A stretch of DNA of 64,000 bases, taken from assembly GCA_036506735.1 (NCBI GenBank), contig DASXRG010000152.1:3226-67225 (forward strand), read 5' to 3'. Both the position numbers and the translations under genes were made by a program. The notes below the pieces were generated by a model, which was given only the letters and a program-made list of their open reading frames with translations, was not told the DNA's origin and did not search any database. Position 1 is the stretch's first letter, and each line of letters begins with the position of its first letter. This DNA comes from Candidatus Binatia bacterium. GTDB lineage: Bacteria; Desulfobacterota; Binatia; UBA9968. Positions 42,190 through 64,000 of this stretch are shown here, one piece after another.

Positions 42190-42195
42190 AATTCA

Positions 42196-42930
<735 letters not shown>

Positions 42931-43029
42931 TTTAATTAATGGGCGAGAGGCGCGAGGCAACAGGCGCTCGTAAAGGCGGTTCGCGAACCGTCCCTACCTC
43001 ATGCCTCACGCCTTTCGCCTCGCGCCTGC

Positions 43030-45118: not shown

Positions 45119-45194
45119 TCCCCGGTAGCTCAGTCGGTAGAGCGGGTGACTGTTAATCACTAGGTCGGGGGTTCGAGTCCCTCCCGGGGAGCCA
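45119..45194 (+). tRNA. tRNA-Asn (anticodon GUU), CCA encoded
   Basis: Manual cloverleaf. Acceptor UCCCCGG/CCGGGGA, D arm GCUC-AGUCGGUA-GAGC, anticodon arm GGUGA-CUGUUAA-UCACU, T arm GGGGG-UUCGAGU-CCCUC, discriminator G and CCA. Confidence 0.9.
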
Positions 45195-48579: not shown

Positions 48580-50796
48580 ATGGCGAAAAAAGTTGTCGGC
48601 AATCCGACGCCGAGAGTGGAAGGCGAATATAAAGTAACCGGCAAGGCGATGTATGCGGCCGATGTAACGCTTCCGGGAATGCTGTGGGGCAAGACTTTGC
48701 GCAGCCCGATTTCTTACGGGCGCATCAAAAAAATCGATCCTAGCCGCGCGCTACAGCTGCCGGGCGTCCACGCGGTCGTCACCGGAGAAGACGTGACCGG
48801 ACTCAAGATCGGCAGGAAGCTTTACGATATGCCGATCCTCGCCGACGGCGTCGTACGCTTCATCGGCGAAAAAGTCGCCGCGGTCACGGCGGACGACGAG
48901 CATACCGCCGAAGAGGCGGTGAATTTGATCGACGTGGAATACGAAGAACTGGCGCCGGTGCTGGATCCCCTCAAAGCGATGGAGCCCTCCGCGCCGATCT
49001 TGCACCCCGACGTGCCGAATTATAAAGGCCTGCCCAACAAGCTGGCGGCGGCCACCAACGACTTCATCTATGTCACCTGGAAAAAAGGCGACCTCGAAGC
49101 GGGTTTTCGCGAGGCGGACATCGTCGTCGAGAATATGTTCTATACCAACCCGGTCCATCAAGCTTACATCGAGCCGCACTCGTGCATGGTCAGCGCGGCG
49201 CCGGACGGCTCGGCGGAAATCTGGGCGTGCAGCAAGGTGCCGTACGGGCTGCGCGAGCAGGTGGCCAACGCCGTGCGCACCACGCCCGATAAGCTCGTCG
49301 TCCATCCGTGCTACATCGGCGGCGACTTCGGCGGCAAGGGCGACTTCATGGACGTCGCGCTGGTTTACGTCATGTCGAAAAAAAGCCGCCGGCCGGTCAA
49401 GATGGTGATGGATTACGACGAGGAGTTCGTGGCCGGCAATCCGCGCCACGCGTCGGTGATTCGAGTGAAAACCGGCGTCAAGAAAGACGGCGCGATCGTC
49501 GCGCATCACATGGAATTCGTCTTCGACAGCGGCGCTTACGGCGCGTTCAAGCCCAACGCGTTTCTCGGCGGCCCGCACGCCTCCGCCGGGCCGTACAAGA
49601 TTCCCCACGTGTTCATCGAGGAGCACATGGTCTACACGAATAAAATTCCGTGCGGCCACATGCGCGCCCCGGGCGACCCGCAGGGCTTTTTCGCCAACGA
49701 AAGCCAGCTCGACCTGGTCGCCAAGAAGCTCGGGATGGACCGGATCAAATTTCGACAAAAAAATCTGATGCACGACGGCGACCAGGACCCGACCGGCGAG
49801 ACCGTCCACTACATCAAGACCGAAGAGACGCTCGAGCGCGCTCTGAAAGACGCGGATTTTTACCGGCCCAAGCCCAAGAACGTCGGGCGCGGCGTGGCGC
49901 TGGTCCAGTGGATGCCGAACGGCGGCTCGGGCACGGTGCGAATCGAGATCGACGCAGAAGGCACGGCAACCATTTCTTCCGCGATGCTCGATCAAGGCGC
50001 CGGAACATATACGCTCCTATGCGAGATCATCGGACAGGAACTGGAAATCCCGCTCAATCAAATCAAAGTCGAAATTCTGGATACCAAGACCGGCAAGCAG
50101 GACACCGGCGTCGGCGCGAGCCGCGCGACGCGGGTCTACGGCAACGCGGCTTACCAGGCGGCGATCAAGGCGGTCGAGGAGATCAAGCGCGTGGCCGCGG
50201 AACAGATGAAGACCTCGCCGGATCAACTCACGCTCGCGAAAGGCGGCGTGCAGCCCAAGCGCGGCGGCAAGCGCGTGAGTTACGCCGATCTTGTCAAAGC
50301 GAAGGGCTCTCCGATCGCCGTCGAAGCGACTTACAGCGACACTTCTAAAGTTCACGAGGCTTCGATGTGCGCTCAGGTCGCGGAAGTGGAAGTCGATCCC
50401 GAGACCGGGCAGGTAAAGCTCAGAAAATTTACCTCGACGCACAACACGGGAACCGTCATCAATCCGCTTATGCATCAGGGGCAGATCGAAGGCGGCGCCA
50501 TGATGGGAATCGGTTACGCTCTCATGGAGCATCTCATGATCTCCGACGGCAAAGTGACGACGACGCACTTCGGCGACTACAAAATTCCCACGATTCAAGA
50601 CGTCCCGGTATTCAAGACTTCGGTTACTCAGAGACTGAAGGGTGCCGGGCCGTATCACAGCATGCCGATCGGTGAGACTACCAATATTCCGGCGGCGGCC
50701 GCGATCGCCAACGCCGTCGAGGACGCCGTGGGAGTGAGGATCAACTCGCTGCCGATTACGGCGGAAAAAGTGCTGGCGGCGCTCCGCGGCGCGTGA
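48580..50796 (+). CDS. xanthine dehydrogenase / aldehyde oxidase family molybdopterin-binding large subunit
   Basis: 738 aa. GEYKVTGKAMYAADV, QAYIEPH, GGDFGGKG and GQIEGGAMMGIGYAL are typical of the Mo-hydroxylase large subunit. Confidence 0.9.
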   Translation: MAKKVVGNPTPRVEGEYKVTGKAMYAADVTLPGMLWGKTLRSPISYGRIKKIDPSRALQLPGVHAVVTGEDVTGLKIGRKLYDMPILADGVVRFIGEKVAAVTADDEHTAEEAVNLIDVEYEELAPVLDPLKAMEPSAPILHPDVPNYKGLPNKLAAATNDFIYVTWKKGDLEAGFREADIVVENMFYTNPVHQAYIEPHSCMVSAAPDGSAEIWACSKVPYGLREQVANAVRTTPDKLVVHPCYIGGDFGGKGDFMDVALVYVMSKKSRRPVKMVMDYDEEFVAGNPRHASVIRVKTGVKKDGAIVAHHMEFVFDSGAYGAFKPNAFLGGPHASAGPYKIPHVFIEEHMVYTNKIPCGHMRAPGDPQGFFANESQLDLVAKKLGMDRIKFRQKNLMHDGDQDPTGETVHYIKTEETLERALKDADFYRPKPKNVGRGVALVQWMPNGGSGTVRIEIDAEGTATISSAMLDQGAGTYTLLCEIIGQELEIPLNQIKVEILDTKTGKQDTGVGASRATRVYGNAAYQAAIKAVEEIKRVAAEQMKTSPDQLTLAKGGVQPKRGGKRVSYADLVKAKGSPIAVEATYSDTSKVHEASMCAQVAEVEVDPETGQVKLRKFTSTHNTGTVINPLMHQGQIEGGAMMGIGYALMEHLMISDGKVTTTHFGDYKIPTIQDVPVFKTSVTQRLKGAGPYHSMPIGETTNIPAAAAIANAVEDAVGVRINSLPITAEKVLAALRGA

Positions 50797-50799
50797 CGT

Positions 50800-51087
50800 G
50801 TGAACAATCTTTCGTCACCCTTCGACAGGCTCAGGGTGACCGACCCTTATCCACTGCGTCTTCTCTCGGATCCGAAAGCCGATCTGATTCGAGCGGCCGG
50901 GGTGGCGAACGAGGGCCATTGGGCCGGTTTGATTTCGCATCCGGTCACGTTCGTCGTCGATCGGCAGAGAATCGTCCGATGGATTTACACCGGCGACAGC
51001 GCGTCCGATCGCCCGAGTCCGGTCGCCCTGGCGAAGACGGCCGTGATGGTTGCGAGAGGAGAACCGCTGCCGGAGGAACATGGCTAG
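50800..51087 (+). pseudogene. C-terminal fragment of a peroxiredoxin-like (AhpC/TSA) gene fused to a repeat element
   Basis: YPLRLLSDPKADLIRAAGV...HPVTFVVDRQRIVRWIY..DRPSP resembles only the C-terminal half of Bcp-like redoxins. The catalytic-Cys half is absent. The first 14 codons are the GTCACCC..GGGTGAC hairpin element (50814-50840). Confidence 0.45.
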
Positions 51088-51100
51088 GTCCTCTCGGATT

Positions 51101-51160
51101 GTCATTCTGAGGCGCAGCCGAAGAATCTCGGAGAGATCCTTCGCTTCGCTCAGGATGACA
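51101..51160. repeat. family 2 hairpin element (GTCATTCTGAGGCGCAGCCGAAG / inverted partner)
   Basis: Left arm at 51101-51123. The reverse complement of the right arm (51139-51160) reads GTCATCCTGAGCGAAGCGAAGG. The left arm matches 1858-1880 at 22 of 23 nt. Confidence 0.65.
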
Positions 51161-51197
51161 TGCCAACTGTGACTTCCGCATCTGGAAGGAGTCAGTC

Positions 51198-52031
51198 ATG
51201 TCTGACCACGCCAAGCCGCTTGAAACCGTTCCCGGCGTAGGATCATCGGTTCCCGAATGGCCGAAAAGTTCCGCGTCGGATCACTGGATACACATCGAGG
51301 AAAGTCCACGGCGCGTGCGCGTAACTTTCGGCGGCGCGACGATCGCCGACAGTAAGCGCGTTCTGCTTCTCCGCGAATCTAAATGCTTACCGGTCTACTA
51401 TTTTCCGAGCCAAGACGTGCGCCTGGACCTCATGCAGCCTACGACTAAGCGGACTCAGTGCCCCTATAAGGGCGACGCTTCCTACTGGACGATTGTCGTC
51501 GGCTCAAAGACCGCGGAAAATGCAGTGTGGAGTTACCTCGATCCACCGGCCTCGGCGGCGGCGATCAGAGGATGTTTCGCTTTTCAATGGACTTCGATGG
51601 ACGCCTGGCGCGAAGAAGAGGAAGAGATCTTCGTCCATCCGCGCGATCCCTACAAGCGGGTGGATGCGCTGCAAAGCTCCCGGCACGTTCGGATCGTGGT
51701 CGCCGGCGAGACCGTCGCCGATACGCGCCGGCCGCGTCTCCTCTTCGAGACCGGCCATCCATCGAGATATTATATCCCGCTGGACGATATCAGGCAGGAT
51801 TTGTTGCTGCGGTCCGAGACGACTTCCCGCTGTCCTTACAAAGGGCCCGCCTCTTACTGGTCGGTCAAAATAGGCGACAAAATTTTTCCGGACCTGGCGT
51901 GGAGCTATCTCGATCCGATTGCCGAGTGTCCGAAAATCAAGGGGCTGCTCTGCTTTTTTCAAGAACGGGAGGCGACGATCCACGTCGATGGGGAGGAATT
52001 GCCCAAGCTCTGGACGAAATGGTCCAGGTGA
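51198..52031 (+). CDS. tandem DUF427-domain protein
   Basis: Two copies of the pattern VRV.FGG..IADS...LL.E...P.YYFP..DV...L.....T.CPYKG.ASYW. Confidence 0.75.
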   Translation: MSDHAKPLETVPGVGSSVPEWPKSSASDHWIHIEESPRRVRVTFGGATIADSKRVLLLRESKCLPVYYFPSQDVRLDLMQPTTKRTQCPYKGDASYWTIVVGSKTAENAVWSYLDPPASAAAIRGCFAFQWTSMDAWREEEEEIFVHPRDPYKRVDALQSSRHVRIVVAGETVADTRRPRLLFETGHPSRYYIPLDDIRQDLLLRSETTSRCPYKGPASYWSVKIGDKIFPDLAWSYLDPIAECPKIKGLLCFFQEREATIHVDGEELPKLWTKWSR

Positions 52032-52062
52032 AAGAAAGTGAGCAGTGAGCAAAGAGAAAACC

Positions 52063-53012
52063 ATGAAAGCGCTTTACTGGGATGGAAACGATTTAACGCT
52101 TAAAGCCGCACATCCGACGCCCGCGCAAAGCCGCGACCAAGCTCTCGTCCGCGTCCGTCTCGCCGGTATCTGTTCTACGGACCTTCAGATCTTCCAAGGC
52201 TACATGGGATTTCGCGGCGTGCCCGGGCATGAGTTCGTCGGCGAGGTGATGGAAGGCCCGCCCGCCCTGGCGCGCAAGCGCGTCGTCGGCGAGATCAACT
52301 TCGGTTGCGGCCGGTGCGAATTTTGCCGGCGCGGGCTAAGCCGTCACTGTCCGAAGCGGCAAGTGATGGGCATTCTCGGCGCGGACGGCTGCTTCGCCGA
52401 AGTCGTCGCCGTGCCCGCGCGCAATCTTCATCCGGTTCCGGAGAGCGTGTCGGATGAAGAGGCGGTTTTCACCGAGCCGCTGGCGGCGGCGTTCGAAATT
52501 CTCGAACAGGTCGAGATCGATTTTACGCGTGAAGTCCTGGTCTTCGGCGACGGCAAGCTCGGGCTTCTCTGCGCTCAGGTTCTGGCGCTCACCGGCGCGC
52601 GCGTGACGCTCGTCGGAAAGCATCCCAACAAGCTCGCGATGGCCAAGAAGGCCGGCGTGCGCTCTGTTCTGCTGTCCGATTGGCAGTCGCGTCCGGCGGA
52701 CATCGTCGTCGAAGCGACCGGTTCGGCGTCCGGCCTCGAGACGGCTCTCGGCGCGGTGCGCCCGCGCGGCACGCTGGTTCTGAAGAGCACGGTGGCCGAG
52801 GAGCACAAACTTTCGCTCGCGCCCGTGGTGATCAACGAGATCAACGTCGTCGGCTCGCGCTGCGGCCTTTTCCCTCCGGCGCTCGATGCGCTGGCGCAAA
52901 AAAAACTCGCCGTCACCCGATGATCGAGAAAATCTACCCATTAAGTGAAGGTCTTGATGCTGTCGCGCACGCCCGCCGGACCGGAGCGCTTAAAGTACTG
53001 CTGAAGAGCTAG
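52063..53012 (+). pseudogene. zinc-type MDR alcohol dehydrogenase with a 1-nt frameshift about 30 codons before the end
   Basis: GICSTDLQIFQGY..PGHEFVG and GKLGLL motifs. The frame ends at TGA 52921-52923, but the expected C-terminus PMIEKIYPLSEGLDAVAHARRTGALKVLLKS continues in the +2 frame to 53012. Confidence 0.65.
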
Positions 53013-53059: not shown

Positions 53060-53100
53060 TTGACAAATACCTCGCCAGATTGGTATATAGCGCCAATTTG
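53060..53100 (+). promoter_or_regulatory. sigma70-like promoter with conserved downstream box (TTGACA-N17-GTATATAGCGCCAATTTG)
   Basis: TTGACA at 53060-53065 and TATATA at 53084-89. The 18-mer at 53083-53100 recurs at 61777-61794 with one mismatch. Confidence 0.5.
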
Positions 53101-53143
53101 CCGTCGGATATGCCTGACTAGCGGGCCGCAAGAAAGGAGTCCC

Positions 53144-54892
53144 ATGAATTATTTTCACCCGTACGCGCCTTCACTGGACGAGACGATAATCACTGCGTGG
53201 GATTCTCAGGTCGCCGAGACTCCGTGGCTGGCGCCATCGCTGGCGGCGCAGACTGCTGATTTATTCCCCCGCTTCGCCGTCGCTTACGCCCAGTTGCGCG
53301 CCTTGCCGCGCGGCGCGCGCCGCGCGCTGCAGCGTCAACTCGCGCACTCGCAAGAGCTGGCGACGATTCCGTCTGAGTGGCAACAGAAGCTGGCCCGCTC
53401 GCTGGCCGGCGCGGCGCTGCTGTTGGCGCTTAGCCACGGAGTAGCACAGGCGAACACGATCACGGTTAACACAAACGTTCCGAAGATCATCACAGACGGC
53501 AAGTGTTCGCTGGTCGAGGCGATCATCAATGCCAACAACGACGCCGCGACACACGTCGACTGCGCGGCAGGCAGCGGCGCGGACACGATCGTGCTGCCGG
53601 CGGCCAGTGTTCATACGGTTTTAACCGACTACGATTTTACCTATGGCGCGACACGTCTGCCGGCGATCACGAGCCAAATCACGATTCAAGGAAACGGCAG
53701 CACGATAAACCGAAAGAAGAGCAAGTTACTGTCGCGTCTCATCGCTGTTGCGGCGAGTGGCGATCTCACGCTGGATCGGGTCACCTTAAGCGGCGGGGGG
53801 CAATACAATGGCGGTGCCATTATTAACTTAGGGAGTCTAACGGCCACGAATAGTACGATCTCAGGCAATACGGCTGTCAAAGGCGGCGGCATATACAATG
53901 CCGGCGGCGCTCTCTCTGTCGAAGAAGCTCTCTTTACCAAGAATGCAGGGGTCTATGGCGCCGGGATATTCGACTACAGCGGCACGACCGATATCGAGCA
54001 GAGCACTTTCACGGGTAACAGGACGGTGTATGGCGGGGCCGCTGTATATGGTCGCTTTGGTACGGTAACCATCCAAAACAGTACCATCACCGGTAATAGA
54101 GCCAGCCGTGCCGCGATCTATAATCAAGGCGGCATCCTCGAAATTCACAATACTATTATCACCAAGAACAGCGCTTCAGAGCATGGCGGCGGAGTGATGT
54201 CCAATAATAACCGGAGCTTTTCGCCGCCACCGTGTTCGGTGACGATCGAAAACAGCACGATTAGCGCCAACGCGGCTCATTATGATGGCGGCGGGATCGA
54301 GAACGAAAGCTGCACACTGGTCGTTAGCAACAGCACAATATCGGCCAACAAGTCCGGAACGGGTGCTGGCGGAATATCTACGGGTTTTGCACCGAGTCTG
54401 ATTGAGAACAGCACGATTTCCGCAAACAGTGGGAGATATACAGGCGGGGTGTACGGAGCTACCATCACGGTCACAAACAGCACCATCACGGGTAACAGGG
54501 CGAAATTAGTCGGCGGGGTTTACAATCGAGGCGACATGACTGTAAAGCGGACTATTGTGTCGGGAAACAAAGGGCCGGTGGGTGAGGCCTTAAGCAATCC
54601 CTCCGGGACGATGACCGTCGATAATTTCAACCTCTTCGGCACCAACGGCAATGCCGGGGTCAGCGGATTTACCGCTGGCGCCAGTGATATCATCCCGGGT
54701 GCCGGCGTCCTCACCGGCAATATCCTCGCGCCGCTGGCGAACAACGGCGGGCCGACTCAGACGCATGCCCTCGTCGCCGGTAGTCCGGCGATCGACGCAT
54801 CACCGGTCGACGCGGATTGTCCGTCCAGCGACCAACGTGGAACCTTGCGACCACAGGGTCCGCTGTGCGACATAGGTGCTTTCGAAAAGTAG
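53144..54892 (+). CDS. beta-helix paralogue A: conserved N-extension, signal-like segment, CSLREA-type domain, Pmp-like parallel beta-helix repeats, choice-of-anchor-Q-type C-terminus
   Basis: ATG at 53144 lies 5 nt after AAAGGAG. Order of elements: MNYFHPYAP..., LAGAALLLALSHGVAQA, ITVNT...DGKCSLVEAIINAN, a dozen or more coils of about 23 aa (NSTISGN..GGGIxN), then NNGGPTQTHALVAGSPAIDA...DQRGTLRPQGPLCDIGAFEK. Confidence 0.85.
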   Translation: MNYFHPYAPSLDETIITAWDSQVAETPWLAPSLAAQTADLFPRFAVAYAQLRALPRGARRALQRQLAHSQELATIPSEWQQKLARSLAGAALLLALSHGVAQANTITVNTNVPKIITDGKCSLVEAIINANNDAATHVDCAAGSGADTIVLPAASVHTVLTDYDFTYGATRLPAITSQITIQGNGSTINRKKSKLLSRLIAVAASGDLTLDRVTLSGGGQYNGGAIINLGSLTATNSTISGNTAVKGGGIYNAGGALSVEEALFTKNAGVYGAGIFDYSGTTDIEQSTFTGNRTVYGGAAVYGRFGTVTIQNSTITGNRASRAAIYNQGGILEIHNTIITKNSASEHGGGVMSNNNRSFSPPPCSVTIENSTISANAAHYDGGGIENESCTLVVSNSTISANKSGTGAGGISTGFAPSLIENSTISANSGRYTGGVYGATITVTNSTITGNRAKLVGGVYNRGDMTVKRTIVSGNKGPVGEALSNPSGTMTVDNFNLFGTNGNAGVSGFTAGASDIIPGAGVLTGNILAPLANNGGPTQTHALVAGSPAIDASPVDADCPSSDQRGTLRPQGPLCDIGAFEK

Positions 54893-54896
54893 GCCT

Positions 54897-56660
54897 ATGA
54901 ATTATTTTCAGCATGTTTCTCTAGCGGCGGATCAGACGATTATCGCCGCGTGGGACTCGCAAGTTGCAGAAGCGATCGGAACGCCCGAGGTTGAGGAGCT
55001 CTTAGTGCAGCGGGGAGGCGAGTTGTTTGCGCGCTTCGCTGTGTGCTACGCGCAGTTGCGCGCATTGCCGCGGGGCGCCCGCCGCGCTCTGCTGCGTCAA
55101 CTCACGCGGTCGCAAGTCCTGACGGGCATTTCACCTGAGTCGCAACGCAATCTCGCGCGCACGTTGGCCGGGGCGGCGTTGGTGCTTGCGCTGGGACAAG
55201 GAGTGGCTCAATCGGCCACGATTACCGTCAACACAAACATTCCAACGATTCTTGCGGACGGAAAGTGTTCGCTCGTCGAGGCGATCATCAACGCCAACAA
55301 CGACGCTTTAACCCATCCGGACTGCGCAGCGGGCAGCGGCGCCGACACGATCGCGCTGCCTGCGGCCAGCGTGCACACGATTTTAACCGATTACGACTCC
55401 ACGTATGGCGCCACGCGGTTACCGGCGATCACGAGCCAAATCACCATTCAAGGAAACGGCGGCAAGATCACGCGGAAGAAAAGTAAGCTCCTCTCGCGCT
55501 TAATTGCCGTGGCCAGCTCAGGAGACCTTACACTGGACAATGTAAGCGTAAGCGGCGGGGCGCAATATTTCGGCGGCGCCATAGTTAATTTTGGCATGCT
55601 CACGATTACGGACAGCACACTCTCCGGCAATACGGCCGTCCGCGGCGGCGCCATATATAACTACACGGACGGCGCGGTCACAATTTCTAATAGCGTCATA
55701 ACCGGCAATAAAGCCGCCTATGGCGGCGCGGGTATATTTACGTACCGCGGCGCAGTCACTGTAGAGAGCAGCGCCTTAACAAAAAATGTCGCTCCTTATG
55801 GCGGGGGCGTCTATAGCTACAATGGGACGGTGAGTATCGAGAATAGCACCATATCAAGCAATACGGGCTATCGCGGGGGTGGAATTCGTTATCATGGGGG
55901 AGAGTTCACCATCGAGCGCAGCCTCGTTGCAAACAATAAGGCTGCCGCCAGTGGAGGCGGTATCTCAGGCGAAGACAACGGAACTCTCACCATAAGCAAC
56001 AGCGTCATTTCGGGCAATAGCACCCCTTCGTTTGGCGCCGGCATATCGCTGGCTTCCGCCTACGTGACAATCGAAAACAGCACGATCTCCGGCAACAAGG
56101 CAGGTTACGCGGGTGGCGGCATTGCGAATTTCGGGGCATTTCTAATCATCGAGAACAGCACGATTTCCGGCAACAGTGCCAAGAGGATCGGCGGCGGCCT
56201 ATGGAACCAAGGGCCCGCCGCTCTTAGCCAGACGACCATTTCAAGCAATAGCGTAAAAAATATCGGCGGGGGCATTTACAACTCGTTCAATCAACTGACT
56301 TTGAACCGTAGTCTTGTTTCCGGTAACAAGGCCGGAGTCGGACCTGAAATAAACAATCGCAGCTCGAATTCGGCGACGGTCGTCGCCGATAACTTCAACC
56401 TCTTCGGCGTCAACGGCAATTCCGGGGTCACGGGCTTTGCCCCCGGTGTGTCCGACATCGTACCTCCCGCCGGCGTTCTTATCAGCAACATCCTCGCGCC
56501 GCTCGCGAACAACGGCGGGCCGACTCAGACGCATGCGCTCGTCGCCGGTAGTCCGGCGATCGATGCATCACCGGCCGACGCGGATTGTCCGTCCACCGAT
56601 CAGCGCGGCACTTTGCGACCCCAGGGCCCGCTCTGCGACATCGGCGCTTTCGAAAAATAA
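54897..56660 (+). CDS. beta-helix paralogue B
   Basis: ATG 4 nt after the stop of A. Same architecture as A. The segment after AAWDSQVAE in the N-extension is more divergent. Confidence 0.85.
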   Translation: MNYFQHVSLAADQTIIAAWDSQVAEAIGTPEVEELLVQRGGELFARFAVCYAQLRALPRGARRALLRQLTRSQVLTGISPESQRNLARTLAGAALVLALGQGVAQSATITVNTNIPTILADGKCSLVEAIINANNDALTHPDCAAGSGADTIALPAASVHTILTDYDSTYGATRLPAITSQITIQGNGGKITRKKSKLLSRLIAVASSGDLTLDNVSVSGGAQYFGGAIVNFGMLTITDSTLSGNTAVRGGAIYNYTDGAVTISNSVITGNKAAYGGAGIFTYRGAVTVESSALTKNVAPYGGGVYSYNGTVSIENSTISSNTGYRGGGIRYHGGEFTIERSLVANNKAAASGGGISGEDNGTLTISNSVISGNSTPSFGAGISLASAYVTIENSTISGNKAGYAGGGIANFGAFLIIENSTISGNSAKRIGGGLWNQGPAALSQTTISSNSVKNIGGGIYNSFNQLTLNRSLVSGNKAGVGPEINNRSSNSATVVADNFNLFGVNGNSGVTGFAPGVSDIVPPAGVLISNILAPLANNGGPTQTHALVAGSPAIDASPADADCPSTDQRGTLRPQGPLCDIGAFEK

Positions 56661-56666
56661 GAGCGT

Positions 56667-58160
56667 ATGAATTATTTTCAGCCATACGCGCTGGACGAAA
56701 CGATAGTCGCTGCGTGGGATTCTCAGATCGCCGAGACACCGTGGCTGGCGCAATCGGCGGCGGCGCAGAGTGCTGATTTATTTCCGCGCTTCGCAACCTG
56801 CTACGCGAAGTTGCGCGCATTGCCGCGGGGCTCGCGCCGGGCGTTGCAGCGGCAGCTCGCCCGCTCCCAAGGACCGGCGGCGATTCCGCTGGAGTGGCAG
56901 CCAAAACTCGCGCGCGCGTTGGCCGGAGCCGCGTTGTTGCTGGCGCTGCGACAAGGTTCAGTGCAGGCGGCCACGATAACGGTCAACACAAACATTCCGA
57001 AGATTCTTGCAGACGGCAAGTGTTCGCTGGTCGAGGCCATGGTAAACGCCAATGATACGGCTACAGGTCAGCCCTACGCGGACTGCGCGGCGGGCGATCC
57101 TACCGGAGCCGATACGATCATCCTGCGCAAAGGGACTCAAACGCTCGTAGATTTCTACTACTATGGGCTTGGTTTGCCGCCGGTTACCAGCCAGATCACG
57201 ATTCAAGGCAACGGCGCCAAGATTGTCCGCGCAAAGAATGCACCGGACTTCGGTCTGTTCTTGGTGCGTTCGTATGGTGGCGACCTCACACTCAATAATC
57301 TGACACTCAGCGGGGGTACTCAGTATGTCGGCGCTGTATCTAATCACGGAACTCTCAGAATCACCAACTGTGTCATCACAGGAAACCGAGCCGTAAGCGG
57401 CGGCGGAATATATAATCGCGGCCTTGGCTATATAAGCGACAGCACAATCTCGACAAATAGGGCGACATTCGGCGGCGGCGTGTTCAACATCGGCTCTCTA
57501 CGAATCATTAACTCTGTCATTACCGGTAACACGGCCAGCGGTTTCGGCGGCGGCGTTGATAACGCCTACAGTATCAGCCTTTCTATCGAGAACAGCACTA
57601 TCACGAAAAATTCGTCGGATAACGGCGGCGGGGTAAGCAACTATGGAGGTACCTTTAAAATCTCCAACAGCACCATTTCGAAGAACACAGCTATCCACGA
57701 TGGAGGCGGCGTTTACAACAATCCCGCATATGATGGCAGCTCTTCGTCTATTATCGGCAGCACCATCACGGGAAATAGCTCGGTTAGAGGTGGCGGAGTG
57801 TTTAACTCACGCAACAACTATAGTTACGGCTTCAAAACCACTCTTTCGATCAGCAACAGCACGATCTCAAAGAATTCGGCGACAAATGGCGGCGGTATAT
57901 TCAGCGAGTACCCCGGCGCCGGTCTTGCGACGATGCTCTACGTGAACCAAAACAGCACGATCCAAGGAAACAAAGCTGGCAATGACGGCGGCGGCGTTTA
58001 TAACGGGAGCTACTTTTACCTCGATAACAGCGCAATCTCAAAGAATTCGGCAGGGGCCCGCGGCGGCGGCGTGTTCAATGCGACCCCGTATGTTTTCTCC
58101 CCGACTAACAGCACGATCAGCGGCAACAAGGCGGCTGTTGGACCGAACGTTTTTCTGTGA
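56667..58160 (+). CDS. beta-helix paralogue C, lacking the C-terminal choice-of-anchor-Q-type domain
   Basis: ATG 6 nt after the stop of B. Same N-extension, signal-like segment and CSLVEAM motif. Ends ...SGNKAAVGPNVFL where the other paralogues continue for about 100 aa. Confidence 0.8.
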   Translation: MNYFQPYALDETIVAAWDSQIAETPWLAQSAAAQSADLFPRFATCYAKLRALPRGSRRALQRQLARSQGPAAIPLEWQPKLARALAGAALLLALRQGSVQAATITVNTNIPKILADGKCSLVEAMVNANDTATGQPYADCAAGDPTGADTIILRKGTQTLVDFYYYGLGLPPVTSQITIQGNGAKIVRAKNAPDFGLFLVRSYGGDLTLNNLTLSGGTQYVGAVSNHGTLRITNCVITGNRAVSGGGIYNRGLGYISDSTISTNRATFGGGVFNIGSLRIINSVITGNTASGFGGGVDNAYSISLSIENSTITKNSSDNGGGVSNYGGTFKISNSTISKNTAIHDGGGVYNNPAYDGSSSSIIGSTITGNSSVRGGGVFNSRNNYSYGFKTTLSISNSTISKNSATNGGGIFSEYPGAGLATMLYVNQNSTIQGNKAGNDGGGVYNGSYFYLDNSAISKNSAGARGGGVFNATPYVFSPTNSTISGNKAAVGPNVFL

Positions 58161-58201
58161 GCGTCGCCGGGTTTAGTTTGGCGCTTTAGTCAAAAAACAC
58201 C

Positions 58202-59962
58202 ATGAACTACTTGCGGCCTTACGCGCCTCCACTGGACGTGACGATAGTCGCTGCGTGGGATTTTCAGATCGCCGAGACACCGTGGCTGGCGCAATCGGCG
58301 GCGGCGCAGAGTGCTGATTTATTTCCGCGCTTCGCAACCTGCTACGCGCAGTTGCGCGCATTGCCGCGGGGCGCCCGCCGCGCGCTCCAACGTCGACTCG
58401 CGAGCTCGCAAGACCTGGCGGCGATTCCGCCTGAGTGGCGACAGAAACTGGCGCGCTCCGTGGCCGGCGCAGCGTTGCTGTTGGCGCTGGGGCAAGGAGT
58501 AGCTCAGGCGGCCACGATAACGGTCAACACAAACATTCCGAAGATTCTTGCTGACGGAAAGTGTTCGCTCGTCGAGGCGATCATCAACGCCAACAACGAC
58601 GCTTTAACCCATCCGGACTGCGCAGCGGGCAGCGGCGCCGACACGATCGTGCTGCCAGCAGCCAGTGTCCATACGGTATTAAACGATTACGATTTCACCT
58701 ATGGCGCCACCCGTCTGCCGGCGATCACGAGCCAAATCACGATCGAAGGAAACGGCAGCAAGATTACGCGAAAGAAAAGTAAAGTCCAGTCTCGATTAAT
58801 GGCTGTAACGACTACCGGCGATCTGACCCTCAAGAACGTGACGCTCAGTGGGGGGCAACATTCCTATGGAGGTGCGCTGTTCAATTATGGCGGTCTCATG
58901 ATCAACGAGAGCACCATTACAGGAAACAGTGCCGTTACAGGTGGAGCGGTAGCTAACGGTGCCGGTGCCGGCCTCGTTATCGAAGATAGCCTCTTTTCGA
59001 AAAACACGGCTGTTACCGGTGGCGGGATTTTTAATTATAAAGGCGATGTCACGGTTCGTAACAGTAGTCTCACCGGACACAAGACGATCTTCAGCGGCGG
59101 CGGTTTGTATGATGTTTCCGGGACCGTAACGATCGAGAGCGTGATCATTGATGGAAATAAGGCCGGCGCCGGCGGCGCCATCTATGCCAAAGGTAGCCTG
59201 CTCGACGTTAACAGCAGCATGATCTCGGGGAACAGCGCCGGTAGTCACGGCGGCGGCATTTGGATCGCTTCTACTCTTGGCGGCAGCGCCACAGTAACGA
59301 TTGCAAATAGCACGGTCGCGGGTAACAAGGCTCACTACAGTTCTGCCGGAATCCTACACCAAAACTTCGGCGGCACGCTTACGATTCAGAACAGCGCCGT
59401 TTTAGGCAATACTGCAAGTGCAGGCGGCGGAGGGATCGAGCAGACGTCCGGGACCATGACGATTGAGAATAGCACTATTTCCGGTAACCGCGGCGGTTCT
59501 GAAGGTGCCGGTATATGGAATCAGAACACTGCAACAATTCGTAATAGCACTATCTCGGGTAATACATCTAAACGGAGCGGGGGAGTTCGCAATTCGGGAC
59601 AACTTACACTCGATCGGAACCTTATTTCCGGTAATAAAGCCGCAGTCGGGCGTGAAATCTACAGTTACACGAGCGGCACGGTCGTCGCCGACAACTTCAA
59701 CTTATTTGGTAATAACGGCAGTGCGGGCGTGGTAGGTTTCTTACCCGGCGCCACCGACATCGTGCCGGGCGCCGGCGTCCTCATCAGCAACATCCTCGCG
59801 CCGCTCGCGAACAACGGCGGGCCGACTCAGACGCATGCGCTCGTCGCCGGTAGTCCGGCGATCGATGCATCACCGGCCGACGCGGATTGTCCGTCCACCG
59901 ACCAACGTGGAACCTTGCGGCCACAGGGTCCGCTCTGCGACATCGGCGCTTTCGAAAAATAA
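58202..59962 (+). CDS. beta-helix paralogue D
   Basis: Same architecture. The 5' end is nearly identical to C, an internal block is identical to B, and the 3' end is a B-like then A-like chimera. Confidence 0.85.
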   Translation: MNYLRPYAPPLDVTIVAAWDFQIAETPWLAQSAAAQSADLFPRFATCYAQLRALPRGARRALQRRLASSQDLAAIPPEWRQKLARSVAGAALLLALGQGVAQAATITVNTNIPKILADGKCSLVEAIINANNDALTHPDCAAGSGADTIVLPAASVHTVLNDYDFTYGATRLPAITSQITIEGNGSKITRKKSKVQSRLMAVTTTGDLTLKNVTLSGGQHSYGGALFNYGGLMINESTITGNSAVTGGAVANGAGAGLVIEDSLFSKNTAVTGGGIFNYKGDVTVRNSSLTGHKTIFSGGGLYDVSGTVTIESVIIDGNKAGAGGAIYAKGSLLDVNSSMISGNSAGSHGGGIWIASTLGGSATVTIANSTVAGNKAHYSSAGILHQNFGGTLTIQNSAVLGNTASAGGGGIEQTSGTMTIENSTISGNRGGSEGAGIWNQNTATIRNSTISGNTSKRSGGVRNSGQLTLDRNLISGNKAAVGREIYSYTSGTVVADNFNLFGNNGSAGVVGFLPGATDIVPGAGVLISNILAPLANNGGPTQTHALVAGSPAIDASPADADCPSTDQRGTLRPQGPLCDIGAFEK

Positions 59963-60137
59963 TCGTTGTCGGCCTCGTTTTTTCTCGCCAGCCTCCAGTT
60001 TACTGTAGGGAAAATCCGTCAGTTTAGCCTCCAGTAAACTTTTTTTCCAAACCCACGTCTAAGTAAGTGCCAGTTTACTTACATGGGGTTTCTACCTGCA
60101 TGTTCGCGCTCAGGATACAGAAAGTTGAGGAACCAGC

Positions 60138-61721
60138 ATGAATTATTTTAGTCCGTTCTCGCTTTCCGCAGACGAAACGGTACTCGCCGCGTGGGATTCG
60201 CAAGTTGCTCAAGCGTCGGAGGATCCCTTTCTTGCCGAGGCGTTGGCGCAGGCTGGAAGCGAGATGTTGCCGCGCTTTGCCGCCCGTTACGCGCAGTTGC
60301 GCGCGTTGCCCCGCGGCGCCCGCCGCACTCTCCAGCGCCAATTGGCGCGTTCGCGCGAGCTGGCCACGATTTCGCCGGAGTGGCAGCCAAAACTCGCGCG
60401 CACGTTGGCCGGCACCGCGTTGTTGCTAGCCCTCGCGCACGGCGTCAGCCAGGCCGCGACGATAACGGTCAACACCAACATTCCGAAGATCAATCCGGAC
60501 GGACTATGCTCGCTGATCGAGGCGATCGTCAATGCCAACGACGACGCTGCAACCCATGCCGATTGCGCCGCGGGCAGCGGCGCGGACGTAATCGATCTGG
60601 CGCCGGCCAGCATCCATACGGTCACGAACAAGTTCGTCCAATATCATGGCGCCACCGGCCTGCCGACGATTACGAGCCAAATCACGATCGACGGCAACGG
60701 CGGCAAGATCGTCGCTAAAAGAGGCGCGTCGTTTCGCTTGTTGGCGGTGGAAAGCTCAGGGGATCTTACCCTATCGAACGTGACCGTGAGCGGCGGGTCG
60801 CAAAATCATGGCGGCGCGATATTTAGCTATGGCACGCTCACGATCAACGACAGCACGATCACCGCGAGCAAGGCCAACTTGGGCGGCGGCGTATTCAACG
60901 GCGCAGCCGCCGTTCTCAACATCGACGGCAGCACCATTTCGAAGAACACGGCGGCATACGGCGGCGGCTTGTACGATTACAGCGGCGCCGTCACCATCGC
61001 CAACAGCACGATCACCGGCAACAAGGCGTTCATCGACGGCGGCGGCATTTACGAACGCTCCGGTACTCTCACGGTCACGTACAGCACGATTTCGAAAAAC
61101 ACCTCGATTCGCGACGGCGCCGGCCTGCACGGCCGCGACAGCTACGCTACGATCGGCTACAGCACGATCTCCGGCAACACCGCCGGCTTCTTCGGTTACG
61201 GCGGCGGCGTTTACGACCGCTCGAGCACGACCACGATCGAAAACAGCACGATCTCAGGCAACAAGGCGAGAGCCGGCGCCGGCATATTCACGCGCGCGAC
61301 GCTCACCGTTTCCAACAGCACGATCGCGAAAAATACCGCCGACGACGGCGGCGGGATATTGAACCTGCGCGATCTGACTCTCAAGCGCACCCTGATATCG
61401 GGCAACTCCGCGTTCATCGGGCGGGAGATCGACGATTTCGACACGGTCACGCGGAATAATTACAACTTGTTCGGTAACAACGGCTACGACGGCGTTATCG
61501 GTTTTTCGCCAGGGGGAACGGACATCGTGCCCGGCGTCGGTCTTGCCGGCATCATCGGTCCGCTCGCCAACAACGGCGGCCCGACGCAGACGCATGCGCT
61601 GGTTACCGGGAGTCCGGCCATAGATGCGGCTCCTGCGGATGCCGACTGTCCCGCGGCCGATCAGCGCGGCACCGCGCGGCCGCAAGGAGCGAGCTGCGAC
61701 ATCGGTTCTTTCGAAAAGTAG
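60138..61721 (+). CDS. beta-helix paralogue E (higher-GC, most divergent copy)
   Basis: Preceded by a 175-nt spacer and GAGGAA. Same architecture: MNYFSPFS..., LAGTALLLALAHGVSQA, DGLCSLIEAIVNAN, NSTITGN coils, and DQRGTARPQGASCDIGSFEK. Confidence 0.85.
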   Translation: MNYFSPFSLSADETVLAAWDSQVAQASEDPFLAEALAQAGSEMLPRFAARYAQLRALPRGARRTLQRQLARSRELATISPEWQPKLARTLAGTALLLALAHGVSQAATITVNTNIPKINPDGLCSLIEAIVNANDDAATHADCAAGSGADVIDLAPASIHTVTNKFVQYHGATGLPTITSQITIDGNGGKIVAKRGASFRLLAVESSGDLTLSNVTVSGGSQNHGGAIFSYGTLTINDSTITASKANLGGGVFNGAAAVLNIDGSTISKNTAAYGGGLYDYSGAVTIANSTITGNKAFIDGGGIYERSGTLTVTYSTISKNTSIRDGAGLHGRDSYATIGYSTISGNTAGFFGYGGGVYDRSSTTTIENSTISGNKARAGAGIFTRATLTVSNSTIAKNTADDGGGILNLRDLTLKRTLISGNSAFIGREIDDFDTVTRNNYNLFGNNGYDGVIGFSPGGTDIVPGVGLAGIIGPLANNGGPTQTHALVTGSPAIDAAPADADCPAADQRGTARPQGASCDIGSFEK

Positions 61722-61753
61722 CGGCTCGCATCGCTGCAGCTTTCTATTCTTTA

Positions 61754-61805
61754 TTGACAGGGCGCGGTTAAATTTAGTATATAGCGCCAGTTTGTAGCGC
61801 TATAT
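61754..61805 (+). promoter_or_regulatory. sigma70-like promoter with the same conserved box, plus a 9-bp inverted repeat reaching the start codon
   Basis: TTGACA at 61754-61759 and TATATA at 61778-83. GTATATAGCGCCAGTTTG at 61777-61794. ATATAGCGC (61779-87) / GCGCTATAT (61797-61805). Confidence 0.5.
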
Positions 61806-64000
61806 GGCCGAAGTTCCTCCCTCGCCGCAGGACGCTGCCTTGCGCAGCGTTCACACCGCAAACCTGCCGGCAATCTTCGATCAGCTCCAAATCAGTGTCG
61901 TCGTTTCCACCTATCAGGCGGGCAAAACGATCCTCGTCCGCAACGACAACGGCACGCTCAACACCCACTTCCGCACATTTGCCAAGCCGATGGGGATCGC
62001 CGCGGATCACGCGCGGCTCACGATCGGCGGCTCGAACACGGTTTGGGAATACCGCAACATGCCGGCCGTGGCGGAGAAACTGGAGCCCGCCGGGAAACAC
62101 GACGGCTGCTATCTCCCGCGCCGCATCCATGTGACCGGCGACATCGACATCCACGAGCTCGCGTGGGACCGCGACAACGAGCTGTGGATCGTGAACACGC
62201 GTTTTTGCTGTCTCTGCACGCTCGACGCCGACCACAGCTTTCATCCGCGCTGGCGCCCGAAGTTCGTCACGGCCTTGGCGCCCGAGGATCGGTGCCATTT
62301 GAACGGCCTCGCGATGGTCGATGGCCGGCCGAAATACGTCACGGCGCTGGGTGAGACCGACACGGCCGGCGGCTGGCGCGCGAACAAGGCCAAGGGCGGT
62401 ATTCTGATGGACGTCGAGACCGACGAAATCCTGCTGCGCGGTCTCTCGATGCCGCACTCGCCGCGCTGGTATCAGGGGAAGCTCTGGGTGCTCGAATCAG
62501 GCGAAGGGAGCTTGGCGCTGGTCGATCTCGACAAGCGCACGTGGCGCACCATCGCGCAAGTGCCCGGCTTCACGCGCGGGATCGATTTTCTCGGCCCGCT
62601 CGCATTCATCGGGCTCTCGCAGGTGCGCGAGAGCGCGGTGTTCAGCGGCATTCCACTGGTCCAGCGGCTCAGCGAGCGCACCTGCGGTGTGTGGGTGGTG
62701 AATATAGAAACCGGCCAGACCGTCGGCTTTCTCCGCTTCGAGGCGGGTGTGCAAGAGATCTTCGCGGTGCAGCTCCTGCAAGGCATCCGTTTTCCCGAGA
62801 TGCTGGAATGGAACGACCCGCGGGTCTCTCAGTCATATGTCCTTCCCGACGAGGCGCTCGCCGATGTGGTTCTTCCCACCGCGGAAGAGCTGGCGCGCAG
62901 TCCGGCGTTCCACTTCCAACGCGGCAATGAATTTTATGACCAGGGCAAGCTCGGCGAAGCCATCGCCGCGTATCGCCAGTGCGTCGCCGTCCAGCCGGAT
63001 TTTCCCAATGCGCGCTACAATCTCGGCGTGGCGCTCGGCGACGCCGGGCGATATCAGGAGGCGACGAGCTGGTTGCAGCAGGTCGTCGAGGCCGAGCACG
63101 AAAAAGCCGAAGCGCACAACAGCCTGGGATTCGTTCTCGCCCGGCAGCGTCAGCCGCGTAAAGCGATCGCGTGCTACGAGCGCGCGATCGAGCTGCAACC
63201 GAATTATATTCAAGCGCATGTCAATCTCGGCATGAGCCTGCTGCAAATCGGCGACTACGCGCGCGGCTTCGCCGAATACGATTGGCGCTCAAAGCTGACG
63301 CCGATGCCGTTTCAATCGTCCCATCCCAAATGGGACGGCAGTCCGATAGCGGAGAAGACGCTTCTCGTCCCTGCCGAGCAGGGCGCCGGCGACGCGATTC
63401 AATTCGCGCGCTATCTGCCGCTGGCGGCAAAGCTTTGCCGGAAATTGGTCGTCATGTGCCGCGCGGATCTGATTCCGCTATTTTCCACTCTGCCCGGAAT
63501 AGCCGAGCTGCGGCAACCCGGCCAGATCGGGATGGCGGAGTTCGATACCTACCTGCCGCTGCTCAGCCTGCCGCGCGTGTTCGGCACAACCGTCGATGCG
63601 ATTCCCGCGGACGTGCCGTATATCGATAGCGCCGCGCTCCGCCGGCGCAGAGACGATCCGTCCCTGCTCTTGCCGGCCGCGTCGTGTCCGCGCGTCGGCA
63701 TCGTTTGGGCGGGGAGCCCGGACAACCGCACCGACAGCCAGCGCTCGTGCGCATTGGCGGAGTTTCTGCCGCTTCTGCGCATTCCAACCTTGGCGTTCTA
63801 CAGCTTGCAAAAAGGAGAGCGCGCGAAAGATCTCGCCGATGTGCCTGCCGCGGTGACCGATCTGCAGCCGCTGCTCGGCGACTTCGGCGATACCGCCGTG
63901 ATCGTCGATCAACTCGATCTGCTCATCACCGTCGATACGGCGGCGGCCCACCTGGCCGGAGCGCTCGGCAAGCCGGTGTGGAATCTGCTGACCGACGTCG
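61804..64000 (+). CDS. TIGR03032/DUF4915-like domain + TPR repeats + GT9 (heptosyltransferase-like) glycosyltransferase fusion; 3' end beyond window
   Basis: Not in the supplied ORF track. My own translation from the ATG at 61804 is open for 732 codons to base 64000: MAEVPPSPQD...VVVSTYQAGKTILVRN...ELAWDRDNELWIVNTRFCCLCTL...HPRWRPKFVTALAPEDRCHLNGLAMVDGRPKYVT... then TPR units (AIAAYRQCVAVQPDFPNARYNLG, AHNSLG, AHVNLG), then EQGAGDAIQFARYLP...VGIVWAGSP...ITVDTAAAHLAGALGKPVW. Confidence 0.85.
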   Translation, partial: MAEVPPSPQDAALRSVHTANLPAIFDQLQISVVVSTYQAGKTILVRNDNGTLNTHFRTFAKPMGIAADHARLTIGGSNTVWEYRNMPAVAEKLEPAGKHDGCYLPRRIHVTGDIDIHELAWDRDNELWIVNTRFCCLCTLDADHSFHPRWRPKFVTALAPEDRCHLNGLAMVDGRPKYVTALGETDTAGGWRANKAKGGILMDVETDEILLRGLSMPHSPRWYQGKLWVLESGEGSLALVDLDKRTWRTIAQVPGFTRGIDFLGPLAFIGLSQVRESAVFSGIPLVQRLSERTCGVWVVNIETGQTVGFLRFEAGVQEIFAVQLLQGIRFPEMLEWNDPRVSQSYVLPDEALADVVLPTAEELARSPAFHFQRGNEFYDQGKLGEAIAAYRQCVAVQPDFPNARYNLGVALGDAGRYQEATSWLQQVVEAEHEKAEAHNSLGFVLARQRQPRKAIACYERAIELQPNYIQAHVNLGMSLLQIGDYARGFAEYDWRSKLTPMPFQSSHPKWDGSPIAEKTLLVPAEQGAGDAIQFARYLPLAAKLCRKLVVMCRADLIPLFSTLPGIAELRQPGQIGMAEFDTYLPLLSLPRVFGTTVDAIPADVPYIDSAALRRRRDDPSLLLPAASCPRVGIVWAGSPDNRTDSQRSCALAEFLPLLRIPTLAFYSLQKGERAKDLADVPAAVTDLQPLLGDFGDTAVIVDQLDLLITVDTAAAHLAGALGKPVWNLLTDV

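Follow-up and report, generated by a model that had tools for sequence, protein, structure and literature searches.

A leader-domain family of tandem beta-helix proteins and an adjoining DUF4915 gene in an uncultured Binatia bacterium

INTRODUCTION

Five co-directional genes on a contig of Candidatus Binatia bacterium (i.e. DASXRG010000152.1 of assembly GCA_036506735.1) encode paralogous beta-helix proteins in which a long, conserved extension precedes a putative signal peptide, raising the question of what a domain in this position does for an exported protein. The window analysed here comprises 64,000 nucleotides of this contig (positions 3,226 to 67,225 of the forward strand). A preliminary description, made from the sequence of the window, had interpreted the five genes as an array whose full architecture does not correspond to a described system, and had suggested profile searches, AlphaFold modelling and an examination of gene neighbourhoods. 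These analyses are reported here. The extension was found to be a leader domain associated with a neighbouring gene of the TIGR03032/DUF4915 family, a pairing that was not found in any searched library or literature and is apparently unrecorded.

RESULTS

A conserved domain precedes the signal peptide

The N-terminal extension, previously put at about 80 amino acids (aa), was detected in all five proteins with a length of ~85 aa. A local hidden Markov model (HMM) of this region scored 113-129 bits on all five genes, and comparison of the paralogues indicated purifying selection, with ratios of non-synonymous to synonymous divergence (dN/dS) of 0.2-0.4 at dS values of 0.3-1.3. Seven positions (i.e. 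Y3, W19, Y48, P55, R56, R59 and R60) were invariant in an alignment of 29 diverse extensions. The last two of these residues form a twin arginine that was also invariant in a set of 47 aligned sequences, and lie within the motif LPR(G/R)xRRxLQR, whose invariant form is LPRxxRRxLQR. An AlphaFold model of the gene 4 protein placed five leader helices at residues 11-25, 27-35, 37-53, 56-67 and 77-84, with block-mean confidence values (pLDDT) of 71-89, followed by a hydrophobic helix at residues 87-99. No family was matched by the extension in Pfam, NCBIfam or the PDB, the Pfam search of the 29 isolated extensions being performed at E<=10. The ~85-aa extension is a real, selected domain and is predicted to form a helical bundle (pLDDT about 80).

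To examine the distribution of this domain, a profile of it was searched exhaustively against 1.84 billion cluster representatives. The extension was detected in 568 clusters at E<=0.001, so that the family comprises at least this number. Nearly all of the 150 matches listed aligned within the first few residues of the protein. Ten distant leader-bearing members were scanned or read and all retained both the CSL cap and the beta-helix passenger; the choice_anch_Q model matched all four of the distant leader-bearing members scanned with NCBIfam. In the members examined, the extension was confined to the N-terminal end of beta-helix proteins of this type.

A mis-called start codon would also generate an apparent extension, with translation beginning in reality near the hydrophobic segment; a Leu or Val codon is located just 5' of this segment, and a plain signal peptide would suffice for export. 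The likely start codon of gene 1 is the ATG at 53144, which has a strong Shine-Dalgarno sequence (GAAAGGAG) just 5' of it, and the gene 5 ATG has GAGGA upstream. Position 53060, from which the preliminary description had counted the array, begins an in-frame TTG that coincides with a TTGACA box. Of the 120 best homologues, nearly all kept the ATG and an MNYFxPY start, with the hydrophobic segment at residue 83-100. Together with the low dN/dS ratios at dS of up to 1.3, the 568 profile-matching clusters and the N-terminal position of nearly all of the matches listed, these observations effectively refute an annotation artefact.

The leader-bearing genes adjoin a DUF4915 gene

The gene following the array was overlooked in the preliminary description, as the open reading frame (ORF) listings leave out genes that cross the window end. 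Its product contains a DUF4915 domain (441 bits in Pfam; cut-off 35), followed by matches to TPR families and a C-terminal domain related to family 9 glycosyltransferases (GT9-like), and an orthologue in a related locus (L003) scored 425 bits with TIGR03032 (NCBIfam cut-off 251.5). The AlphaFold model of the DUF4915 domain is a six-bladed beta-propeller (pTM 0.82), which resembles the Kelch, YWTD and YVTN propellers only generically (TM-score about 0.5). No hydrophobic segment was seen in the translated N-terminus, so the partner protein is probably cytoplasmic. The C-terminal domain carries the signature DLVIxVDTxxAHLAGALGxPVW and gave Glyco_transf_9 scores of 16.0 bits for the incomplete window copy and 23.1 and 20.3 bits for the copies in loci L001 and L002, respectively (cut-off 22). 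Glyco_transf_9 and heptosyltransferase models matched this domain at E about 1e-5, the heptosyltransferase I/III and RfaQ models doing so at E 2e-5 to 2e-4. Many relatives of the domain carry PF01075, and JGI labels some of them heptosyltransferase. With its propeller, TPR repeats and GT9-like matches, the partner looks like a binder or a transferase. No paper on DUF4915/TIGR03032 was found in the searched literature and the family is without an assigned function; the choice-of-anchor literature that was found is unrelated to the present system.

The association between the two gene types was assessed from both sides. Look-ups of six homologues of the beta-helix genes located a DUF4915 gene directly adjacent and on the same strand in five, with no DUF4915 within 10 kb of the sixth. 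A DUF4915-seeded scan of species-representative genomes yielded 30 loci, whose six-frame ORFs were searched with the local extension HMM. Twenty long loci contained a close DUF4915; between one and five extension-bearing genes were present in 15 of them, one further locus had beta-helix fragments and four had none. A reciprocal metagenome scan was seeded with the leader plus the CSL region and produced 77 loci, a scan with the leader alignment alone having given no usable pattern. Same-strand DUF4915 genes were present in 7/9 of these loci with a length of at least 12 kb, 11/17 of at least 8 kb and 19/32 of at least 5 kb. Two pairs of loci (i.e. L001/L008 and L003/L011) are identical contigs. 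Both fused (~790 aa) and stand-alone (~380-410 aa) forms of the propeller adjoin extension genes, and genes with divergent, short-spacer leaders were likewise located beside DUF4915. The pairing was also observed in an entirely different genomic context in L006, where the propeller is a stand-alone protein of 378 aa.

Clustering of the flanking ORFs detected no other recurrent neighbour outside the syntenic clade. Only metabolic genes (i.e. a xanthine-dehydrogenase-type gene, DUF427 and an alcohol dehydrogenase) recurred, and these within one clade only. The beta-helix genes and their DUF4915 partner are very probably functionally linked.

DUF4915 was 68-90% identical across metagenome-assembled genomes (MAGs) labelled as Binatia, Chloroflexi, Gammaproteobacteria, Spirochaetota and Actinomycetota, and the beta-helix neighbours were far more divergent (window 61804-62862; loci L008-L032). 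Such high identity across phylum labels indicates that the gene is under extreme constraint, that it has spread horizontally in recent times or that bins carry wrong labels.

Distant DUF4915 genes (about 40% identical) were found in heterogeneous contexts with no leader-bearing genes nearby. In a Bacteroidales MAG (L035 1115-11969), the gene is situated among cargo genes of type IX secretion (i.e. C25 and M14 peptidases and an FG-GAP protein, all with Por_Secre_tail); in a Porticoccaceae MAG (L033 1618-2713), it adjoins EF-hand and 2OG-Fe(II) oxygenase genes; and in a Bythopirellula MAG (L036 7746-8735), a gene of the NAD-dependent sugar-nucleotide epimerase/dehydratase family is nearby. In several long-read MAG contigs (L027 9830-15500, L028 9788-11147 and L031 4300-9830), the DUF4915 and beta-helix genes are split into overlapping frame fragments, which are probably assembly frameshifts rather than pseudogenes. 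There seem to be two DUF4915 copies in L027.

The mature proteins are capped beta-helices

The repeats of the five proteins had been described as a dozen or more coils of about 23 aa. Pfam scans confirmed their beta-helix/PMP character, with Beta_helix (PF13229; gathering cut-off 25.9) scoring 50.9 and 46.7 bits on genes 1 and 5, and Chlam_PMP (PF02415; cut-off 20.6) scoring 21.6, 27.9 and 24.4 bits on genes 2, 3 and 4, respectively. The period was 24-26 aa rather than 23, and ~10-12 clear repeats were counted per protein. AlphaFold modelling of the gene 4 protein, performed with 47 aligned sequences, produced a right-handed beta-helix, a continuous beta-solenoid between residues 105 and 530 at pLDDT >90 (the mean over the whole model being 85.6). 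Four cysteines (i.e. C121, C140, C563 and C579) are invariant and constitute two conserved pairs, one in each cap.

The N-terminal cap had been likened to the CSLREA domain. A CSLVEA region is present in all five proteins, but TIGR04214 (CSLREA_Nterm; cut-off 25) gave no match on any of them at E<=1. A distant family member (P0212) scored 26.4 bits with the same model, above the cut-off, and the resemblance of the window proteins is thus one of homology below threshold. At the other end, choice_anch_Q (NF041518; cut-off 25) scored 82.5, 86.0, 86.2 and 84.2 bits in genes 1, 2, 4 and 5, and NCBIfam gave no match to this model in gene 3. As originally proposed, nothing that could serve as an anchor comes after this domain; the matches end at residues 581/582, 586/587, 585/586 and 526/527, and the proteins terminate in CDIGAFEK with no hydrophobic tail of the GlyGly-CTERM kind. 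Despite the strong HMM match and two invariant cysteines, the C-terminal 53 aa of the gene 4 model (534-586), which correspond to choice-of-anchor Q, had a pLDDT <50, and folding of this domain may depend on disulfides, on a ligand or on a partner. HMMs and AlphaFold agree on tandem, paralogous, exported beta-helix proteins with choice-of-anchor Q and no sorting anchor.

In relatives, the modules located after choice-of-anchor Q vary (i.e. transmembrane-plus-basic, RTX, TSP3, hexapeptide and He_PIG Ig modules, with examples in P0235, P0255, P0212, P0218 and P0065) and the leader is constant. A sortase-type LAVTG motif was matched weakly, below threshold, in one relative.

The best PDB match of the gene 4 model was RbtA (9CDU/9CDV; Foldseek E 1e-5, TM-scores 0.25-0.39), a surface protein whose function is unknown (PMC12643943). 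The Rhombotarget A model (TIGR04212) scored 32-46 bits on the N-terminal half only, short of its equivalog cut-off of 295, and no autotransporter beta-barrel was detected in the Pfam scan of the five proteins at E<=1, the C-terminus being choice_anch_Q. By HMM criteria, the window proteins fall outside the RbtA equivalog, the autotransporters and CSLREA_Nterm. The mature proteins are RbtA-like choice-of-anchor Q beta-helix surface proteins, i.e. a known kind, and it is the whole architecture that corresponds to no described system, as had been suggested, in that the leader has no Pfam, NCBIfam or PDB family and the closest solved relative has no known function.

All of the top structural matches were beta-helices, and those ranking after RbtA (i.e. 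GH110, phage tailspikes and alginate epimerases) would be in keeping with ordinary tandem-duplicated, secreted carbohydrate-active enzymes such as lyases, epimerases or glycosidases. The DUF4915 neighbour would then be unrelated and the extension would slow Sec export in the manner of the extended signal peptide region (ESPR). ESPR-type extensions do occur on long beta-helical passengers, and the flanking genes of the array are metabolic. Pfam and NCBIfam scans of the window proteins, however, detected no catalytic family, and no ESPR family was present among the Pfam matches of the full proteins at E<=1 or of the 29 extensions at E<=10; the extension is, moreover, predicted to fold. The DUF4915 adjacency spans several labelled phyla and is retained in one locus outside synteny, no further neighbour recurs, and a promoter-like element (see below) is common to the array and the partner gene. 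The enzyme explanation is decidedly unlikely on this evidence.

The hydrophobic segment is a predicted signal peptide

All five proteins contain the hydrophobic segment ending in AQA or VQA that the preliminary description had noted. The alignment of the RbtA model begins at about residue 83, where its signal-peptide end coincides with this segment. The segment has a hydrophobic core of only ~10-11 residues, after which comes an AxA site (AQA, VQA or AQS) directly before the conserved TITVNTN, an arrangement that fits a cleavable signal peptide and hence removal of the whole ~103-aa leader on export. An extracytoplasmic destination is consistent with the invariant cysteine pairs in both caps and with features of some relatives, which carry transmembrane-plus-basic C-terminal tails or the sub-threshold LAVTG match. 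From these sequence features, the segment is predicted to be a signal peptide.

An uncleaved segment would instead function as a signal anchor, making the products type II membrane proteins, whose cytoplasmic helical domain permanently tethers the DUF4915-TPR-GT9-like protein and so links a surface beta-helix across the membrane to a cytoplasmic enzyme or scaffold. The modelled folded domain ahead of the hydrophobic helix (aa 87-99), the probable cytoplasmic location of the partner and the conserved adjacency of the two genes are all compatible with such a topology. The shortness of the core, the small-x-small site before TITVNTN and the alignment with that part of the RbtA model which covers a cleavable signal peptide argue for cleavage, and we consider the anchor to be very unlikely.

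The invariant twin arginine raises a further alternative, namely a twin-arginine translocation (Tat) signal peptide that has the extension as its long n-region, with the DUF4915 propeller as a substrate-specific proofreading chaperone comparable to TorD, DmsD or NapD. The leader would then be held until cytoplasmic folding, and perhaps glycosylation, of the beta-helix was complete, and Tat would export the folded protein. TibC works on a folded beta-helix (PMC4358343). A cytoplasmic, pre-export partner suits this logic. Four spacing classes were distinguished, with 5-8, 16, 21-25 and 30-34 residues between the twin arginine and the hydrophobic core, and members of the first, divergent class have the motif shortly before an Ala/Gly-rich hydrophobic region (LPRRTRRALQRKLAxSLAGAALLLAL...AxA) in a Tat-like geometry. 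In the window proteins, however, the twin arginine (59-60) is located 21-22 residues before this region, a distance outside the usual range of Tat predictors. No Tat-signal family was found among the Pfam or NCBIfam matches of either the window proteins or the short-spacer members, and a Q rather than a hydrophobic residue follows RR-x-L. The two invariant cysteine pairs suggest oxidative folding after export, and the sub-threshold LAVTG match in one relative also speaks against Tat. Export by the Tat pathway is unlikely in our estimation.

A two-part model and the evidence against it

The preferred reading, to which we assign an even chance, is that of a two-part module consisting of the five exported beta-helix proteins and one cytoplasmic partner. 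In this model, pre-proteins would be made with a ~103-aa leader that combines the helical domain with the signal peptide, and the leader domain, while still in the cytoplasm, would be recognised by the beta-propeller and/or TPR region of the partner. A cytoplasmic partner can meet these proteins only before or during export, and the leader is their only family-specific cytoplasmic feature; we therefore propose the leader as a docking handle, a role that is plausible but falls slightly short of being probable. Partners with a fused GT9-like domain might glycosylate Ser/Thr residues of the NST/ISGN coils before export; the analogy with known heptosyltransferases makes this a tentative possibility, with the balance of likelihood against it. 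The propeller alone would act as a holding or targeting factor. The existence of stand-alone propellers implies that the core role is other than glycosylation (i.e. holding, targeting or another modification). After export, signal peptidase would cut the whole leader off at AQA|A, and the mature beta-helix on or outside the cell would serve as an adhesin, a matrix protein or a glycan-binding protein.

Several observations weigh against this model. Three 20-kb loci (L007, L054 and L072) have extension genes without DUF4915, and the DUF4915-TPR-glycosyltransferase genes of L025 and L037 have no beta-helix neighbour. Many partners consist of the propeller only, so glycosylation is not a universal function, and the generic nature of the propeller fold match means that the partner could be another kind of enzyme. 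The GT9-like assignment is weak, with scores of 16-23 bits around the cut-off, and a profile of this domain matched nothing among PDB sequences, including TibC and WaaC, even at E<=10. NxS/T sequons numbered 6-12 per protein as compared to 5.8-8.6 +/- 2.5 in composition shuffles and were thus unenriched. N-glycosylation of NxS/T sequons of the HMW1C type was considered and dropped, since the sequons were not enriched over composition.

A broader form of the proposal, for which our support is likewise tentative and the doubts outweigh it, is that the helical pre-signal domain and the very highly conserved DUF4915 propeller form a widespread, hitherto unrecognised system. Large exported proteins would use a folded leader to recruit a cytoplasmic factor of their own before export (i.e. 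a chaperone, or a TPR-glycosyltransferase in fused cases), and the leader would then be discarded with the signal peptide. If correct, the logic of leader-guided peptide maturation would be applied here to surface proteins of 500 residues.

Organization of the array and its surroundings

The features of the locus are listed in Table 1. The five ORFs lie on the + strand at the positions originally reported, with spacers of exactly 4, 6, 41 and 175 nt. The paralogous proteins are 52-65% identical to that of gene 1; their architecture is almost certain, and the array is far beyond chance. Related metagenomic loci also contain arrays of such genes, three to five in number (i.e. L001, L010, L003, L012, L089 and L051), often with the partner gene within the array; this neighbourhood comparison identified none that has been characterised. 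The five copies differ chiefly in the coil region, which suggests that their surfaces have diversified and that the chassis for export and modification is common to all. Synonymous divergence (dS) was lower at both termini than across the coils, as would fit conserved parts for export and capping combined with diversified surfaces.

Table 1. Positions of the array, the partner gene and associated elements in the window
Feature	Position	Strand	Description	Basis
Promoter-like element, gene 1	53060-53100	+	TTGACA-N18-TATATAGCGCCAATTTG	direct reading
Gene 1	53144-54892	+	582 aa; N-terminal extension, signal peptide, beta-helix, choice-of-anchor Q	ORF, GAAAGGAG Shine-Dalgarno
N-terminal extension, gene 1	53144-53404	+	aa 1-87	alignment, local HMM
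Gene 2	54897-56660	+	587 aa; architecture as gene 1; begins 4 nt past gene 1 stop	
N-terminal extensions, genes 2-5	54897-55166, 56667-56921, 58202-58462, 60138-60407	+	equivalent to that of gene 1	local HMM
Gene 3	56667-58160	+	497 aa; N-terminus and beta-helix as in the others; choice-of-anchor Q deleted	
41-nt spacer, genes 3/4	58161-58201	+	contains GGCGCTTTAGTCAAAAA	sequence comparison
Gene 4	58202-59962	+	586 aa; architecture as gene 1; protein used for AlphaFold model	
Hairpin + U7, 175-nt spacer, genes 4/5	59997-60047 (hairpin 59997-60040)	+	terminator-like	
Gene 5	60138-61721	+	527 aa; architecture as gene 1, two coils fewer	
Promoter-like element, partner gene	61754-61794	+	TTGACA-N18-TATATAGCGCCAGTTTG; ~10 nt before ATG	
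Partner gene	61804-64000, past window end	+	DUF4915, TPR repeats, GT9-like domain; no signal peptide	translation of 61701-64000

The protein alignment of gene 3 stops at GNKAAVGPNVFL, and alignment of its 3' end with genes 2 and 4 at the DNA level exhibited a clean missing block (58095-58201 region), indicating that the choice-of-anchor Q domain was lost through an internal deletion. The spacer sequence GGCGCTTTAGTCAAAAA (GGCGCTTT..AAAAA) looks like a decayed copy of GGCGCTTTCGAAAAATAA, which encodes the GAFEK-stop ending of genes 2 and 4.

A 17-nt core, TATATAGCGCCARTTTG (i.e. TTGACA-N18-TATATAGCGCCARTTTG), occurs twice in the window as compared to zero expected occurrences, once before gene 1 and once before the partner gene. 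This promoter-like element was not listed by a consensus promoter scan because its -10 box ends in A. The second copy is so close to the ATG that the partner mRNA would be nearly leaderless. The motif was absent from 37 related loci that were compared and is accordingly genome-specific. The number of occurrences of another candidate, the operator-like motif CCAGTTTAC, was not above chance in the window. RNA folding of 59955-60140, which includes the spacer between genes 4 and 5, gave -47.4 kcal/mol (z = -2.4). The hairpin and U7 tract in this spacer were absent from the output of a consensus terminator scan; their form suggests a terminator or attenuator, with genes 1-4 and gene 5 in separate transcription units.

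Upstream of the array, genes for a xanthine-dehydrogenase-type molybdopterin subunit, a DUF427 protein and a zinc alcohol dehydrogenase occupy window positions 48580-52923. These are syntenic only in one clade (L001-L005, L008-L011 and L032) and are therefore probably outside the module. A cluster on the - strand at 40414-44496 encodes an ABC_tran_2 protein, an ABC ATPase and a transglutaminase-like protein and falls within a region of unusually strong AT skew (0.26); a tRNA-Asn gene (45119-45194) is located just past it.

DISCUSSION

The closest structural counterpart of the window proteins is RbtA of Acinetobacter baumannii, which shares with them a signal peptide, a CSLREA-type cap and a right-handed beta-helix of PMP-like coils. 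The window proteins differ in having no GlyGly-CTERM or rhombosortase signal, in scoring far below 295 bits with TIGR04212 and in the low TM-scores of the structural match. We know of no ~85-aa pre-signal domain and of no DUF4915 partner for RbtA. A second likeness is to the choice-of-anchor Q proteins, the C-terminal domain of which is present in four of the five and after which NCBI names some of the homologues. Choice-of-anchor Q is named for its position ahead of alternative C-terminal sorting signals, a sorting signal being typical and not required. The window proteins depart from this norm in that nothing follows the domain, and the family name is silent on function.

Conserved N-terminal extensions ahead of the signal peptides of large, beta-helical or specially handled proteins are represented by ESPR and by the long, chaperone-bound n-regions of Tat signals. 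The ESPR is ~25 aa in length and unstructured, and the window extension is three to four times longer. At 85-100 aa, the latter also differs from ESPR in its predicted helical fold and in its unrelated sequence. The invariant twin arginine is shared with Tat signals, but the window proteins have no Tat-signal HMM match and an atypical spacing between this motif and the hydrophobic region. If the present reading is correct, the extension represents a new kind of N-terminal export leader, in which a folded domain is placed ahead of the signal peptide.

For the pairing of the two gene types, the nearest parallels are the AAH-AIDA-I and TibC-TibA systems, in which a glycosyltransferase gene related to lipopolysaccharide heptosyltransferases adjoins genes for exported beta-helix repeat proteins, an arrangement that the present locus, with its weakly matched GT9-like domain, may resemble. 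Heptosylation by AAH and TibC takes place in the cytoplasm before export. Both enzymes belong to the WaaC-like heptosyltransferases with a GT-B fold and act on Ser residues within the coils of the AIDA-I and TibA beta-helices (PMC4358343). Unlike AIDA-I and TibA, the window proteins have no autotransporter barrel, and their leader domain has no counterpart in these systems. The GT9-like domain of the window is only weakly similar to AAH and TibC, is fused to TPR repeats and the DUF4915 propeller, and is absent in many loci. If such a modification does occur, cytoplasmic, pre-export modification of beta-helix surface proteins would reach past the enterobacterial autotransporters to soil bacteria that are abundant and uncultured, Binatia among them. 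The partner is a full-length member of TIGR03032/DUF4915 (425-441 bits), and its linkage to the leader-bearing proteins would, if true, provide the first functional context for this family.

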